A DNA stretch of 64,000 nucleotides from an uncultured virus (IMG/VR IMGVR_UViG_3300042867_001762) (IMGVR_UViG_3300042867_001762), one strand, 5' to 3'. Positions 11,208 to 19,356 are shown, counted from the first letter of the stretch. Numbers and translations: made by a program. The notes: a model not told the origin generated them from the sequence alone.

Positions 11208-11606
11208 TCAGTCGTACCAGCAATACAGCCCTTTGTTGCTGCACATACGCTCATCTGCCTGATAAAACAACGCATCAAAAGCAGAGCGCTCCTCGTCCGT
11301 AGGCTGCGCCTTCAGCTCTACGCCTTCAATTGACAACCGGTAGTCATAACGATCTGGACCGACTGCGTACCCATGCGCTGTGAAACGGGGGTGCGCCGTA
11401 AGAAATTTTGCAAATTCATCAATACTAGGACCATCATTATGGCGCTCGAATGGATCAGCATGACCGGCTGCCAGTAGGATGTTCAGCCTGCCAACGTCCA
11501 GTCCGGTAAAGCTCTCAATGCCGCCCAGCTCATAGGAAGAAGAGATACCAAGAATAGCGTCGCGTTCAGCCGCAGCAATAATACGCTGTGCACGATAAAG
11601 CTTCAT
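11208..11606 (-). CDS. hypothetical protein
   Basis: HGYAVGPDRYDYRLSIEG...CWYD. Confidence 0.7.
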   Translation of the reverse strand: MKLYRAQRIIAAAERDAILGISSSYELGGIESFTGLDVGRLNILLAAGHADPFERHNDGPSIDEFAKFLTAHPRFTAHGYAVGPDRYDYRLSIEGVELKAQPTDEERSAFDALFYQADERMCSNKGLYCWYD

Positions 11607-11890
11607 AGCGCAGGTTCCTTTACGTAAACATCATCTCGAACTAATATTTTGTGCGAGCCGTCAAAAGAAAAAACGCCGCGATCTACTATGAACTGGAAAT
11701 CATCCCAGCAAAAGCTGCCACTAGGAGTCTTGAGGCGGACCTCTACGATCTGCCAAGGAGCGCGCACCCAGCGCCAGTCCATATCGCGACGCGCATCAAT
11801 CTCCGGGAAACGCTGCGAAAAAATGTTTATGATTGCGGATGCATTCCGTTCTCGCACGGCTTCGAGCATCAGGTAGCTGTCTAGCTTCAT
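11603..11890 (-). CDS. MKL-family paralog
   Basis: MKLDSYLMLEAVRERNASAIINIFSQRF. Confidence 0.75.
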   Translation of the reverse strand: MKLDSYLMLEAVRERNASAIINIFSQRFPEIDARRDMDWRWVRAPWQIVEVRLKTPSGSFCWDDFQFIVDRGVFSFDGSHKILVRDDVYVKEPAL

Positions 11891-12225
11891 ACTATCATGC
11901 CTATCTTGATATAAAGATCTCGCGGTGCATAGAAGATGATTTTGGACTCCTTCGTAGTGCATCCCCAGCATTTAAATTCATCTTCATTGTTCCAGCCATA
12001 ATAATAAGATTTGGAGCCGACCGCTTTCTCTGCGCATCCCTTGACATAGGCTATCACTACATAGTCCGCGACGTCGCCATCGGCGGACAGACGAAAGCGC
12101 GAGTTCCTCGCAACAAGCGCAGCCACCAGCCCAGAGAGTCCGAAGTGCCGGTCTAGGACCATCGCTGCTTCGTCCCAACGAGCATCCATCATGGCGCTCT
12201 TTATCTCATAAGAATCTAGCTTCAT
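11887..12225 (-). CDS. MKL-family paralog
   Basis: MKLDSYEIKSAMMDARWDEAAMVLDRHFG. Confidence 0.8.
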   Translation of the reverse strand: MKLDSYEIKSAMMDARWDEAAMVLDRHFGLSGLVAALVARNSRFRLSADGDVADYVVIAYVKGCAEKAVGSKSYYYGWNNEDEFKCWGCTTKESKIIFYAPRDLYIKIGMIV

Positions 12226-12307
12226 TGCGAAGGCGTCCTATTTAAAATAGCGGCGGGGACCGTCGCCGCACAGGATCGGGCGCGTCCGGTTTTAGGCCCG
12301 GCCCGCG

Positions 12308-12613
12308 CTAAGAAAATAACCTCTTAACAACATAAGGGTTGGTTGTTCCTTCGTCATCATCTGAATCCTCAAGCATACGGTACGCCAGCTCTAATGAGCT
12401 TTGTGTAATCTTGGCAAGATTAGGAGAGAAGTAGTCAGTATTAATGACTGACCCGCCGATGCTTATCTTTTCACCGAACTGGTATATTCTAAATCCAGGC
12501 TTAACGACCCAGGCATATAGTATGCCGCCAGGGTCCAATCTATCAAAAGCATCATCGTATTCGCCAATAACTTCTTGCAAGTGCTCCCTGATTTCCCACT
12601 CTCTAATCTTCAT
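12308..12613 (-). CDS. hypothetical protein (MK..EW.IRE subgroup)
   Basis: MKIREWEIREHL, resembles 15983-16342. Confidence 0.65.
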   Translation of the reverse strand: MKIREWEIREHLQEVIGEYDDAFDRLDPGGILYAWVVKPGFRIYQFGEKISIGGSVINTDYFSPNLAKITQSSLELAYRMLEDSDDDEGTTNPYVVKRLFS

Positions 12614-12884
12614 CGCAGTACTCTAGAGCGACATGAGGACTGTACCTAGCCTCATCCACGTAGTATGTATAAAAACTAGAAAGCTCATCCCAGCGCCAAA
12701 CAGTACGCCTATAATAAAGTGTCATGCTCCGGGGCGCGTGCAATGAGCCATACCTCTGTACATTAAAAGTATCTAGCGGCGGGAGCCGGTCTATTATGTC
12801 AAAGTGACGCATCAAGCAATAAACCGCGGCCCGCCAGTCACGAGCGCGTATCGCTTCCAGCATTTCGTAGTTTTCAATCTTCAC
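12603..12884 (-). CDS. MKL-family paralog
   Basis: MKIENYEMLEAIRARDWRAAVYCLMRHFDI; close relative of the adjacent gene. Confidence 0.8.
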   Translation of the reverse strand: MKIENYEMLEAIRARDWRAAVYCLMRHFDIIDRLPPLDTFNVQRYGSLHAPRSMTLYYRRTVWRWDELSSFYTYYVDEARYSPHVALEYCDED

Positions 12885-13158
12885 AGGGATATTCTTCGCA
12901 ATAGGTTATAGTCGCTTTAGGTGCGCTAGGTTCTGCCAAGTCCTCTGCATAAAACCCAGCAAAATCATCCCAGTGCCAAGCAGTGGTGCCATAATAAATT
13001 GACAAGGACCAAGAGGTCCAATCAATTGCTTTAAACGAAAATGTATTTAGCGGCGGGAGAACATCCACTATATCAAAGTGACGGATTAAGCAATCGGCGG
13101 CGCGTCGCCAGTCACCAGCACGCAGCGCTGCCTCTATCTCGTATTCGTCGAGCTTCAA
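12874..13158 (-). CDS. MKL-family paralog
   Basis: MKLDEYEIEAALRAGDWRRAADCLIRHFDI...WDDFAGF. Confidence 0.8.
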   Translation of the reverse strand: MKLDEYEIEAALRAGDWRRAADCLIRHFDIVDVLPPLNTFSFKAIDWTSWSLSIYYGTTAWHWDDFAGFYAEDLAEPSAPKATITYCEEYPCED

Positions 13159-13172
13159 TGTTGCTCCAATTA

Positions 13173-13372
13173 AAAAGCGGCCGGCACTCCTGGTAGGCTA
13201 CGGCCATCGCCCGATAAAACCGCGGGTAGTGCTCCCGCTTCCGAAGGGTCTAGCCCTTTTCGCGATCAGTAACTTTTTCTAGAATTGTTACTGGCGCTAT
13301 CGGTTAAGCGCCCGCAAGCGCTTGTTCGAAAAGTGGTGTTTTGATTTCTTATAGGAAGAACACCGAACCTCG
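13173..13372 (-). ncRNA. candidate structured ncRNA with multibranch core and two possible loop-loop pairings
   Basis: ORF-free; perfect stems CCGATA/TATCGG, CAGTAAC/GTTACTG, AAGGG/CCCTT, GCGGG/CCCGC, AAGCGC/GCGCTT, GGCCG/CGGCC; loop complements TCTAG/CTAGA and GCACT/AGTGC. Confidence 0.55.
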
Positions 13373-13373
13373 T

Positions 13374-13448
13374 TGGCAGCCCGTGTAGGAGTCGAACCTA
13401 CCTGATGCAGCTTTAGAAGAGCCGCCACTGAATTCCGTCAGACGAGCC
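13374..13448 (-). tRNA. tRNA-Arg(TCT) with degenerate D-arm
   Basis: GGCTCGT/ACGGGCT + G-CCA; GCGGCT-CTTCTAA-AGCTGC; GTAGG-TTCGACT-CCTAC. Confidence 0.8.
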
Positions 13449-13528
13449 GTATAAACGTCTTACTCGTAATGTAAGTTACATCGGAGGGCAAATGAAGACA
13501 TGTGGAAAGTGCGGAGGAAAATTTCCTT

Positions 13529-13606
13529 TCACAAAAAGATTGCATAGCAAGCCGCGGCGTCTCTGGCCCGAAAGACTTGTAGCATCTTGTAATGATGGAG
13601 CTTCAT
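13529..13606 (-). pseudogene. truncated MKL-family paralog (25 aa)
   Basis: MKLHHYKMLQVFRARDAAACYAIFL then stop, abutting an opposite-strand CxxC gene stub. Confidence 0.6.
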
Positions 13607-13607
13607 C

Positions 13608-13866
13608 TCATATCCTTAGAGTAATGGCGCAAGATGTTCTGCGATCAAACTTGGAAAAAGACTTACAGAAGCCGGTTGTCGGCGACCAGGTATAATATCC
13701 TGGCCCATCCCAGATATGAATCTTGTACCCATGAAAACTGGTAGGATGAATCTCGATGAACAGATCTTGAATGCTTAGACAGAAATGGTCTTGTAAGATT
13801 TGCGCAGGCCTTTGCTGTGTCAGCCTGCTGGAAAGCTTCCAGCATTTGATAGTGGTCGAATTTCAT
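13608..13866 (-). pseudogene. MKL-family paralog with one-base frameshift
   Basis: Removing one T from 13799-13801 gives MKFDHYQMLEAFQQADTAKACAILQDHF...YYTWSPTTGF, restoring both family motifs. Confidence 0.7.
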
Positions 13867-13919
13867 CCTCTTATCCAGACTTTAAAAAGGTGGTCGTCCG
13901 TAGCTATGTAGCTTCGCGC

Positions 13920-14222
13920 CTAGTACTTGAACAAGAACCTAACAGATTTTATAGGGCACTTACTGAAGTCTGCCCAGTCGGGATGACCCCGCGGCGCATA
14001 ATTTGAATCACGGAAAAGCCCGCCCCTACAGGTAATGAAAGCTGAGTTTACAAAGTAAACCACTAGCTGCGGCTGCGGATGCCCGTCCGTATGAAACTGT
14101 TTTGCCTGGAGTGCTTCGCCTATGCGATGACCTAGGCCAAAGTGATCGAGTACGAGGCGCAGTGCGTAATGCCTATCGGCAGCACCCATGGCTTCGACAA
14201 AAGCGTATGACTCTAGTTTCAT
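13920..14222 (-). CDS. MKL-family paralog
   Basis: MKLESYAFVEAMGAADRHYALRLVLDHFG. Confidence 0.8.
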   Translation of the reverse strand: MKLESYAFVEAMGAADRHYALRLVLDHFGLGHRIGEALQAKQFHTDGHPQPQLVVYFVNSAFITCRGGLFRDSNYAPRGHPDWADFSKCPIKSVRFLFKY

Positions 14223-14223
14223 G

Positions 14224-14517
14224 CTATTCCGCTGGCACGGTAATGACCGCCGCAATAGGCGAACGAGTGCCTGGACTAGATGCAACCGTGCTAGCGAAAT
14301 AAGTTCTCACGCTTCCTGCCGATCCTATCCACCATCTATATGTTGCGCCATCTTTATGTATGGCAACCTCTGATACGCTGCGCGAAAAAAATACCTTAAT
14401 ATCTTCTGGGCGGATTTCTTCTGCGTCCAGCCCGAAGTGTCCGGCAAGCAGTCTTACTGCAAGCGGGTAATTGCGCTCGCTAAAAGCAATACGCATACCG
14501 AAGTTGTGTAGCTTCAT
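14224..14517 (-). CDS. MKL-family paralog
   Basis: MKLHNFGMRIAFSERNYPLAVRLLAGHFG. Confidence 0.8.
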   Translation of the reverse strand: MKLHNFGMRIAFSERNYPLAVRLLAGHFGLDAEEIRPEDIKVFFSRSVSEVAIHKDGATYRWWIGSAGSVRTYFASTVASSPGTRSPIAAVITVPAE

Positions 14518-14538
14518 GGTGCCTCCGGCGTTCGGGGT

Positions 14539-14850
14539 TCAGGATCGGGGCGACCCGGCTTTAGGCCCGGCGGCCTCTGCGGGCGGCGCATAAATATCTA
14601 CAACGATGCTGTTCTCGGGATAAAGCTTACGCCATTTGGGCCAGCTTTCAAAGCCTAGTGACTTGCGCCAGGAGTAGATGCGATTACCGTGATTGATCTC
14701 TATCTCCGGCTGGAAGCCATTGTGACGCAGCAGATACAACCGATAGTCCGCTGGCATAGGGATATTAAAGTGCGCAGTGAGGGCTGCAATGGCCGCTGGC
14801 CAATCCTCGCGCTCGAATGCTTCACTGATACAGTAATGGTCCAGCTTCAT
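14539..14850 (-). CDS. MKL-family paralog
   Basis: MKLDHYCISEAFEREDWPAAIAALTAHF...YSWRKSLGF; C-terminal tail encoded by a motif copy. Confidence 0.8.
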   Translation of the reverse strand: MKLDHYCISEAFEREDWPAAIAALTAHFNIPMPADYRLYLLRHNGFQPEIEINHGNRIYSWRKSLGFESWPKWRKLYPENSIVVDIYAPPAEAAGPKAGSPRS

Positions 14851-15098
14851 CTAGCGAATATCCTGACATAGCTGCCGGGTACTGATGGCCTGCTCCAAAA
14901 CCCATCGTATTCTTCCCAGACATAGCGATTGCCATCAAGAATAATATTAACTTCCAGAGGTGCGACGGTAGCTTTTGTCAGGCCAACATTAGCGATAGTG
15001 CCGAATGGTTTGCCAAAATATTCTGACATGACCTTGATTGCCCTCGCCCAGTCTTCGGTTTCAAAAGCGAGAAACATTTCCGCAGCGGCCAGCTTCAT
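14847..15098 (-). CDS. MKL-family paralog
   Basis: MKLAAAEMFLAFETEDWARAIKVMSEYFG...YVWEEYDGF. Confidence 0.8.
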   Translation of the reverse strand: MKLAAAEMFLAFETEDWARAIKVMSEYFGKPFGTIANVGLTKATVAPLEVNIILDGNRYVWEEYDGFWSRPSVPGSYVRIFAR

Positions 15099-15385
15099 GC
15101 TTTCACCCAGATGTCAAAGGCTTGGTAATACTGAGGGCGGGCTACTGTTTGTTTTGGTCCAATGAAGCCTATTGTGTTGTACCAATAGTATGATACATTT
15201 TGATACGTAACACACGCCATGTGTTCAAGCGTGTCGTTCGCACCTAGCCTGCCAATAGCAGGACTTAGTGTGGAGGTTATCCGCGCAATCTCTGGCACAC
15301 TAAAGTACTCCGCCATTATATCGCCAGCAGCAATATAGTCGCAGGCCTTCATAGCGCACAGCATCAGATAAGAGTCCAGCTTCAT
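15095..15385 (-). CDS. MKL-family paralog
   Basis: MKLDSYLMLCAMKACDYIAAGDIMAEYF...YYWYNTIGF. Confidence 0.8.
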   Translation of the reverse strand: MKLDSYLMLCAMKACDYIAAGDIMAEYFSVPEIARITSTLSPAIGRLGANDTLEHMACVTYQNVSYYWYNTIGFIGPKQTVARPQYYQAFDIWVKA

Positions 15386-15669
15386 GCTAAGATAACTACT
15401 CTGCCCAATAGGCCGTTGTTGATCGAGCGCATGTGTTCATATGAAGCTCCCTTGGCAAAGCCTGTCTTGGCATTCCATGATAGCTCCTTCCCATCATAAT
15501 AAGATATGCGCACAGAGTAATGCGGAAAAGTCGGCCCGCGCGACCAAGTGGCAATCTGAAAAGCCAAGTGATTATAGTTCTCGCCAAAATGCGCAAGAAG
15601 AATATCTACAGCTTGGCCGTAGTTGCCGGCGGCAAGAGCGGCTGTTATCTCGTAATAATCTAGCTTCAT
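15382..15669 (-). CDS. MKL-family paralog
   Basis: MKLDYYEITAALAAGNYGQAVDILLAHFG...SWNAKTGF. Confidence 0.8.
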   Translation of the reverse strand: MKLDYYEITAALAAGNYGQAVDILLAHFGENYNHLAFQIATWSRGPTFPHYSVRISYYDGKELSWNAKTGFAKGASYEHMRSINNGLLGRVVILA

Positions 15670-19268: not shown

Positions 19269-19356
19269 TGGCGGGAAAAGTGAGAGTCGAACTCACGGTA
19301 CCTTGCGGTACGCCGGGTTAGTAATCCGGTGCCTTAAGCCACTCGGCCATTTTCCC
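19269..19356 (-). tRNA. tRNA-Ser with ACT anticodon
   Basis: GGGAAAA/TTTTCCC + G-CCA, long variable arm, anticodon arm CCGGA-TTACTAA-CCCGG. Confidence 0.85.

Follow-up and report, generated by a model that had tools for sequence, protein, structure and literature searches.

The tRNA regions of phages repeatedly host structured RNAs, with T4 RNAC and RNAD, GOLLD and ROOL as examples. RNAC (species 1) and RNAD (species 2) of phage T4 have remained unexplained since the 1970s. Two publications present them as small RNAs of the tRNA region without known role (PMC3014915, PMC9697503). On the minus strand of the T4 locus, tRNA-Arg (71173-71247) is followed 1 nt later by rnaD (71053-71171) and then by rnaC (70908-71046). 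In riboswitch leaders of the cobalamin type, the sensor domain contacts a hairpin of the expression platform via a kissing loop. ROOL RNAs measure about 580 nt. Together with GOLLD, which owes its name partly to its lake origin and often exceeds 800 nt, ROOL is counted among the structured RNAs of phages and prophages that often lie near tRNA genes and in which kissing loops are central (bioRxiv 10.1101/2024.12.08.627333). Theta ribozymes, reported from gut phages, start a few nucleotides (5 or fewer) past the 3' end of phage tRNAs and have been proposed to process their 3' trailers (PMC10879173).

Here we describe an element of about 215 nt that occupies positions 13159-13373 on the minus strand of a 64,000-nucleotide stretch of viral DNA (IMG/VR IMGVR_UViG_3300042867_001762, hereafter the window), between a tRNA-Arg(UCU) and an open reading frame (ORF) of 94 amino acids. 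Like T4 RNAD and RNAC, the element belongs to a large virulent phage, directly follows a tRNA-Arg encoded on the same strand, and is small, structured, non-coding and absent from Rfam; its junction, a closing stem with three arms, also recalls the topology of RNAC (z -4.57). It differs from them in sequence, nhmmer finding no similarity to the T4 locus (L027) at E<=10, and in detail: RNAC has a tRNA-type T arm (GGUUCGAAUCC; rnaC CCGGGUUCGAAUCCCGG, UUCGAAU-type loop), whereas hairpin H5 of the element carries the loop AGCACUA, and RNAD ends in CACCA and RNAC in CGUACA, whereas the element ends in a hairpin and a U tract before a ribosome-binding site. Two RNAs, of 119 nt (RNAD) and 139 nt (RNAC), are encoded in T4, against a single block of about 215 nt here. 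GOLLD and ROOL form multimeric nanocages; the element, much shorter, gives no indication of forming multimers, although the loop of its hairpin H3 holds a palindrome (UCUAGA), and is matched by neither of the two Rfam models. Cobalamin-type leaders share with it a multi-helix junction followed by a hairpin and a U tract before the Shine-Dalgarno sequence, and the H5 loop complements the loop of that hairpin. Unlike riboswitch leaders, however, the element scores no higher than 14.8 bits with any Rfam riboswitch model (SAM/SAH), has no conserved antiterminator and precedes a gene for a small phage protein, not a metabolic gene or transporter. Theta ribozymes start at a comparable distance from the tRNA, but their double pseudoknot is not visible here on manual inspection, the element is much longer, and its phage comes from lake water.

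Genomic context

The window lies within a phage genome of 371,675 bp (G001) with direct terminal repeats, with which it has 100% of the sampled words in common. G001 is an uncultivated jumbo phage of a lake-water lineage. Its gene content includes rIIA, topoisomerase II, a family-B DNA polymerase (PolB), an SbcC-like nuclease, a terminase and a portal protein, and its terminase reaches at best only about 25% identity to that of any GenBank phage. The rIIA, topoisomerase II, PolB and SbcC-like genes are of the T4 type. Among the 22 sequencing runs listed, 20 (from 20 studies) carry part of the stretch, almost all of them from lake water; in 10 of the 22, half of its words or more are present, and 5 may represent the sample of origin. 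About 15 lake runs contain 36-68% of the element's words.

All plausible genes near the element lie on the minus strand and include a tandem array of small paralogues starting with MKL(D/E)xY. The array genes on either side of the element are co-directional, with frequent overlaps of a few bases, and the element must therefore be crossed by transcripts. It is located mid-operon, among small early-type genes of a long co-directional operon, and a nhmmer profile built from three sequences finds it in a single copy in the 372-kb genome. One array paralogue gives a sub-threshold match to SUKH-1. CTAG is not strongly avoided in G001 (observed/expected 0.80), so the two CTAGs in the element are unremarkable.

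Upstream lies an atypical tRNA-Arg(UCU) (13374..13449, minus strand), which at minimum energy folds into a cloverleaf; its stems measure 8 bp (acceptor), 4 bp (D), 6 bp (anticodon) and 5 bp (T), its anticodon loop reads CUUCUAA, and CCA is encoded. ARAGORN makes no call at 13374-13449, and the top Rfam score of this tRNA is a sub-threshold 22.3 bits with the tRNA-Sec model. The original prediction had placed the element directly downstream of a tRNA-Arg, and so it is: the cloverleaf with its UCU anticodon ends at 13374 and the conserved block begins at 13373. In two metagenomic relatives, L023 and L024, the orthologous position is held by very different tRNAs. That of L024 is a canonical tRNA-Arg(TCT) (55.6 bits); that of L023 (32.3 bits) has its D arm replaced by only 4 nt, a 17-nt variable insert and a UCU anticodon. 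The three tRNAs occupy one site, are 60-64% identical and have the UCU anticodon and a GCCA 3' end in 3/3 cases, and these comparisons indicate that the tRNA cassette just upstream of the element has clearly been replaced between relatives.

Downstream, a Shine-Dalgarno GGAG (13164-13167) and a TTG start codon (13156-13158; together 13156..13167, minus strand) open the 94-aa ORF (12874..13158, minus strand). GGAG and the first codons are common to all three sequences, and the start is weak throughout, being TTG in the window and GTG in L023 and L024. The ORF belongs to the tandem family of small paralogues, with orthologues in L023 and L024, and shares 42% identity with the neighbouring paralogue (12603-12884). 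It matches no Pfam and no PHROG family, and its AlphaFold model (pLDDT 86.7) has no match in the PDB at E<=0.001, so the downstream protein gives no functional clue.

Architecture of the element

The predicted architecture comprises two 5' hairpins, a four-way junction domain and a terminator-like 3' hairpin, all read on minus-strand RNA. The 5' hairpin H1 has the stem GGUGUU/AACACC (13359-13364 with 13335-13340), a variable loop of 17-18 nt and 6/6 pairs invariant in the three sequences. It may be extended at its base by P0 (13365-13368 with 13324-13327; H1 and P0 span 13324..13368), in which alignment columns 12/50 read C-G, U-A and A.A across the three sequences (alignment A4); single-sequence folds disagree on P0, which leaves its register uncertain. 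H2 (13306..13323) has a 7-bp stem, AAGCGCU/GGCGCUU, closed by a UGCG loop, with 7/7 pairs invariant in the three sequences, and is also predicted in the isolated 5' domain of the window and of L024.

The junction domain (13211..13303) consists of P1, H3, H4 and H5. P1, the closing stem, pairs 13293/4-13303 with 13211-13220/1 around a core of CCGATA (13211-13216) and TATCGG (13298-13303). H3 (13267-13293) carries a 13-nt loop, AAUUCUAGAAAAA, that holds UCUAG, and H4 (13244-13258) carries the loop CUAGA, with an extension pairing 13263-13265 and 13241-13243. H5 (13222-13238) has GCACU within its AGCACUA loop. The H3 loop includes the palindrome UCUAGA.

At the 3' end, GGCCG (13201-13205) pairs with CGGCC (13179-13183) around a 17-nt loop, 5/5 stem pairs being invariant; the loop holds AGUGC at 13184-13188 and could form a 4-bp inner stem. 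The stem is followed by GC and then by UUUUU (13172-13176) within a U-rich tract (13168-13176), so that the whole unit spans 13168..13205. These features agree with what had been read from the window beforehand. The closing stem 13211-13216/13298-13303 and the three hairpins it encloses (13267-13293, 13244-13258 and 13222-13238) are present in the sequence, as are the letters of both loop complementarities (UCUAG in H3 with CUAGA in H4, and GCACU in H5 with AGUGC at 13184-13188), the 3' hairpin ending in a U tract, with its stem at 13201-13205/13179-13183 and UUUUU at 13172-13176, and the two further 5' hairpins, which we locate at 13335-13364 and 13306-13323.

The 3' hairpin has a folding energy of -12.2 to -14.6 kcal/mol and a stem of five G-C pairs; by consensus rules it is a weak candidate terminator. 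The run UUUUU begins 2 nt past the stem in the window and is interrupted in L023 and L024 (UCUUUCUUAUU); a consensus terminator scan missed the hairpin because its 17-nt loop exceeds the 8-nt limit of the scan. The U tract and the Shine-Dalgarno sequence are 11-13 nt apart. Comparison of the window, L023 and L024 yielded no conserved antiterminator and no conserved structure sequestering the Shine-Dalgarno sequence, and the lack of a conserved antiterminator weakens a classic riboswitch reading. Two alternatives found in the window, a 9-bp pairing of the 5' strand of H1 with the Shine-Dalgarno and start region and a pairing of AAGCGG with CCGCUU, are not kept in L023 or L024 and were set aside. 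No sigma-70-like promoter was found inside the element.

The element shows no sign of coding: all sense frames contain stops, and no ORF within it is conserved among the window, L023 and L024. A 40-aa sense ORF in L023 lacks a start codon in L024 and is frameshifted in the window by a 1-nt indel in the H1 loop, and the coding reading was rejected.

Comparison with known RNA families

Rfam 15 searched over the whole window at gathering thresholds returns four tRNA matches, none of them in 13159-13373. At E<=10, the region 12800-13800 yields the tRNA-Sec match on the tRNA (22.3 bits) and a SAM/SAH riboswitch match of 14.8 bits, and no others; the L023 and L024 elements give nothing at E<=1. The SAM/SAH match was dropped, with its score far below the threshold of 40 bits, an E value of 1.9 and coverage limited to the 3' hairpin and the Shine-Dalgarno region. 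The original prediction could match the element to no riboswitch or ribozyme and named an Rfam search as a check; that search assigns it no family and no riboswitch or ribozyme identity, whether at gathering thresholds or at E<=10.

The T-box model (RF00230) likewise has no match at gathering thresholds or at E<=10. T-box-like letters do occur, UAGA in the H4 loop against UCUA in the anticodon loop and UGGC against GCCA, but they are 4-nt matches picked out post hoc. Neither ARAGORN nor Rfam calls a tRNA in 13211-13303, and the junction shares with tRNA only the four-arm topology. The 3' loop also resembles the cobalamin 'B12 box', a reading dropped for want of Rfam support. A catalogue of phage RNAs holds about 10,000 candidates (PMC10690425); six sequence words of the element have no occurrence in six of its supplementary files, files 1, 2 and 4, which may hold alignments, lying outside the search. 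Subject to those files, the element is an RNA family not yet described, of a kind that is known, the tRNA-linked structured RNAs of phages.

An island of conservation

Relatives were sought by a protein-anchored scan of JGI metagenomes with the downstream ORF family (alignment A2), which returned three loci. Two of the three, L023 and L024, carry the element; the third (L025) was spurious. The collection of homologues that the original prediction had envisaged thus amounts to two metagenomic relatives with the element, whose substitutions mostly preserve pairs. Nucleotide identity across the element is 93.0% between the window and L023, 86.0% between the window and L024 and 90.1% between L023 and L024. 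For the same three comparisons it is 61.2%, 60.0% and 64.0% in the tRNA, 60.6%, 59.0% and 87.2% in the downstream ORF and 74.1%, 74.6% and 94.1% in the next gene. In these alignments the element appears as an island of conservation against L023 and L024, far above the flanks of the window. In the three sequences the conserved block runs from exactly the first base past the encoded CCA up to the start codon. Between L023 and L024 the element is no better conserved (90.1%) than the flanks (87-94%), and the L023 element is nearer to that of the window (93%) than to that of L024 (90%); given this mosaic pattern, recent exchange between phages could account for part of the conservation.

Other searches added no further copy of the element. 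Comparing 12600-14000 with GenBank phages by blastn gave no match, and protein-anchored scans of IMG/VR with the 94-aa ORF, a 467-aa ORF and alignment A5 found no relatives. A pattern for the 3' half of the tRNA met a single, unrelated locus in IMG/VR (L021), and a gapped pattern joining the H5 loop and the 3' loop met a single chance match inside a coding region (L026), which was discarded. The H3 pattern and the gapped three-loop pattern had 0 matches, as had two sequence patterns run against genome contigs. A 24.8-kb fragment (L022) carries a 93% identical ATPase gene and stops short of the element locus.

Substitutions that preserve pairing

The pairing model comprises 58 pairs in the three full sequences (window, L023 and L024), or 174 cells, of which 98.3% are paired; the figure drops to 34-47% once partner columns are slid by 1-3. 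Three pairs are changed on both sides, at alignment columns 84/156 (P1), 123/129 and 142/152, and they point to compensatory changes in H4 and H5 and possibly in P1 too. All compensatory changes among the three full sequences trace to L024 alone, so a column-shuffle control cannot beat the observed 23/500.

Between the junction domains of L023 and L024 there are 14 substitutions, 10 of them in paired columns. One of the ten disrupts a pair; the other nine preserve or form one, being made up of 2-3 compensatory pairs, 2-3 wobble-compatible changes and one newly created pair. None of the 25 hairpin-loop columns is changed, and the loops are more conserved than the stems. Simulated random placement of the substitutions gives, under a model with columns 84/156 paired (model A), P = 0.0015 for at least three compensated pairs, P = 0.012 for at most one broken pair and a joint P of 0.00019; with column 84 paired to 110 instead (model B, two compensated pairs), the joint P is 0.0014. 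Each sequence further has 3-4 G-U pairs that are compatible with minus-strand RNA only.

A fourth variant comes from a 170-nt contig of a metatranscriptomic library, which covers 13173-13303, beginning in the junction and continuing past the 3' hairpin and U tract into the ORF start; 10 of its 11 differences from the window are listed. It repeats the compensatory pair in H5 (13225/13235) and makes G-U pairs at 13264 and 13269, and three differences are unpaired. The sole loop change seen lies in the last letter of the H4 loop (A to G, 13249), where the proposed kissing pair could still contain U-G. At the top of P1, the differences at 13220 and 13221 disrupt one pair or more, and by this comparison they speak against the longest version of the stem. 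The compensatory status of 84/156 in P1 may accordingly be doubtful, since column 84 can pair with 110 and this variant breaks the top of the stem. The contig hints at read-through, with which it is compatible; DNA carry-over is possible, so it is no proof of transcription, strand or RNA ends. Contig cover of the stretch leaves gaps at 13100-13138 and 13347-13480.

Taken with the Rfam result, the conservation above the flanks, the pair-preserving substitutions and the G-U pairs confined to the minus strand bear out the proposal of a new structured RNA made in the original prediction. The comparisons indicate a genuine structured RNA of about 215 nt that selection has maintained.

Folding and loop complementarities

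Folding statistics differ between the whole element and its junction. The full 215 nt reach z -1.10 against shuffles, 25 of 200 shuffles being equally good, so that folding at full length does not exceed chance; the opposite (plus) strand, at z -2.74, does better than the minus strand by the same measure. The 93-nt junction domain of the window, folded in isolation, adopts exactly the described structure as its minimum-energy fold (z -2.82, 2/200 shuffles), and the isolated junction domain of L024 gives z -2.09 (6/200 shuffles). Single-sequence minimum-energy folds of the full window and L023 elements deviate from the model, and the RNAalifold consensus of the three sequences, junction domain included, reproduces the described architecture. 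RNAalifold also paired the 5' end with the first codons in a long-range helix, which was left out of the model, being free of variation and inside a conserved coding motif.

The two candidate kissing-loop pairings are suggestive, not compelling. All ten pairs of these complementarities are invariant in 3/3 full sequences, and two loop-loop matches, each 5 nt or longer, arise in 616 of 20,000 loop shuffles (3.1%). By RNAalifold and single-sequence prediction, the pairing between the H5 loop and the 3' loop competes with the inner stem of the 3' hairpin, and it could in this way couple junction folding to termination.

Discussion

We tentatively favour, at a probability of roughly 0.4, the reading that the element is a tRNA-trailer RNA whose terminator-like hairpin, placed before the next ribosome-binding site, attenuates read-through, and which may also accumulate as a stable RNA. 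In the minus-strand transcript, the element would form the 3' trailer of the phage tRNA-Arg(UCU), and 3' processing of the tRNA would free its 5' end. The 3' hairpin would then halt part of transcription, acting as a cis attenuator that sets read-through into the downstream paralogues, and the terminated product of about 200 nt may accumulate in the manner of T4 RNAD and RNAC. Tertiary contacts of the invariant loops, with one another or with a partner, are probable and would couple the folded junction to the 3' hairpin. We favour attenuation because of the mid-operon site, the position of the hairpin before a Shine-Dalgarno sequence and a weak start, and the contig compatible with read-through.

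The parallel with T4 also admits a purely trans-acting stable small RNA, a functional analogue of RNAC and RNAD that would be cut from the tRNA-Arg precursor, end at a constitutive terminator and serve a host or phage partner unrelated to the downstream gene. Both T4 RNAs sit directly after tRNA-Arg, RNAC shares the closing stem with three arms, G001 has T4-type rIIA, topoisomerase II, PolB and SbcC-like genes, and loops without a change in 25 columns fit contact surfaces. Against this, nothing links the element to the T4 locus at E<=10 in nhmmer, it has neither the T-arm motif of RNAC nor a CCA end, and a strong terminator in mid-operon would silence the downstream genes, barring an unseen promoter. 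Nor did the phage genome offer a convincing complementary target, the best being a 12-nt match inside a 1444-aa ORF that we take as chance. We regard this account as rather unlikely. A further possibility, which we judge improbable, is that the RNA is a device specific to tRNA-Arg(UCU), either a sensor of the anticodon loop or a decoy for an anticodon nuclease, a synthetase or a modification enzyme. In all three tRNAs, letters 33-37 of the anticodon loop read UUCUA, as does part of the H3 loop; the H4 loop has the complementary UAGA, which includes the codon AGA, and the 3' hairpin carries UGGC, complementary to the GCCA end, in its 5' strand; three very different tRNAs at the same site all have UCU and GCCA while the H3 and H4 loops are invariant, and T4 also pairs a tRNA-Arg with small RNAs. 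Yet these matches span just 4-5 nt and were noticed post hoc, an arbitrary 5-nt kissing sequence would contain UCU or AGA in about 9% of cases (a rough estimate made without computation), no T-box match appears in Rfam, a 5-nt loop is a poor dock for an anticodon, and annotation at the Pfam and PHROG level shows no nuclease or synthetase gene nearby.

Conservation that begins at the first base past CCA in 3/3 sequences, at the place where theta ribozymes start and for which trailer processing has been proposed (PMC10879173), would suit a self-cleaving ribozyme or processing module of the HDV-like theta type that matures the tRNA 3' end. Rfam, however, shows no ribozyme family at E<=10, and the element is some four times as long as a minimal HDV-like ribozyme. 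On manual inspection the sole helix near its 5' end directly encloses H1, leaving neither P2 nor P1.1 and hence no nested double pseudoknot. We regard this identity as very improbable. The mosaic identities, in which L023 is nearer to the window in the element despite flanks 87-94% identical to L024 and 59-75% identical to the window, and the clear replacement of the upstream tRNA cassette are what one would expect if the block had no RNA function and were conserved through recent exchange among co-infecting phages, serving for instance as a homology arm in tRNA-cassette swaps, or acted as DNA. Pair preservation beyond random placement (joint P 0.0002-0.0014), strand-specific G-U pairs, loops more conserved than stems and the lack of any repeat of the element in the 372-kb genome speak against such an origin, to which we assign a low probability, much as for the tRNA-Arg device.

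To the structured RNAs of phage tRNA regions, the element adds a compact member, about 215 nt long, that combines a defined junction, invariant loops and a clear mid-operon setting as a tRNA-Arg trailer. Three different tRNA-Arg(UCU) genes turning over ahead of a near-constant RNA make for an unusual evolutionary pattern. If a role tied to tRNA-Arg were true, we would be dealing with a phage RNA of a new kind, one that senses the state of its own tRNA and gates the early genes downstream accordingly, or that serves as an anticodon-loop decoy for a host enzyme, for instance an anticodon nuclease; the same role might also account for T4 RNAC and RNAD.

Local sequence matches of the RNA element

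A perfect 12-nt complement of the loop of H3, a hairpin of the four-way junction in the conserved RNA element, lies at positions 13537-13548 of locus L014 (253537-253548 of G001, the 371,675-bp virus record that contains the window), within a 1444-aa ORF, and probably reflects chance. The SAM/SAH riboswitch model matches weakly at window positions 13159-13209 on the minus strand (14.8 bits, E 1.9), over the 3' hairpin and AUUGGAGCA, and GGAG-like motifs are found also in the loops of the junction hairpin H5 and the 3' hairpin.

Small genes flanking the element

The 94-aa protein encoded downstream of the element (12874-13158, minus strand) has a confident AlphaFold model (pLDDT 86.7), in which two helices precede three strands, of which the second and third are long; a comparison of this model with the PDB returned no match at E≤0.001. 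At least 12 tandem paralogous small genes of approximately 67-132 aa occupy window positions 11603-15669 on the minus strand, sharing an N-terminal or nearly N-terminal MKL(D/E/H)xY motif, and many have a few-base overlap with the following gene. The member at 14539-14850 matches SUKH-1/SMI1-KNR4 below the threshold (23.5 against 25.4 bits). The copy immediately upstream of the tRNA-Arg gene (approximately 13474-13660) looks frameshifted relative to its counterpart in the metagenome relative L024, which is intact.

tRNA genes of the phage and divergence at the tRNA-Arg site

T4-type replication genes occur in G001 alongside a terminase that shares only approximately 25% identity with the terminases of small Bacillus phages. 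ARAGORN identified five tRNAs in this record, all within approximately 24 kb (G001 12.5-36 kb), and none outside this interval across the whole 372 kb. Among ARAGORN predictions in the window is a tRNA-Ser with anticodon ACT (19269-19356, minus strand), that is, with A at position 34, which is unusual in bacteria and phages.

A tRNA-Arg(UCU) gene occupies the same site in the window (13374-13449) and in the relatives L023 (2708-2787) and L024 (2711-2787), with identities among the three of 60-64%. The L024 tRNA has the canonical form; in that of the window the acceptor stem is 8 bp and the anticodon stem 6 bp long, and that of L023 nearly lacks a D arm and carries a variable insert of 17 nt. 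The presence of such divergent genes at one site suggests either cassette replacement or rapid tRNA divergence.
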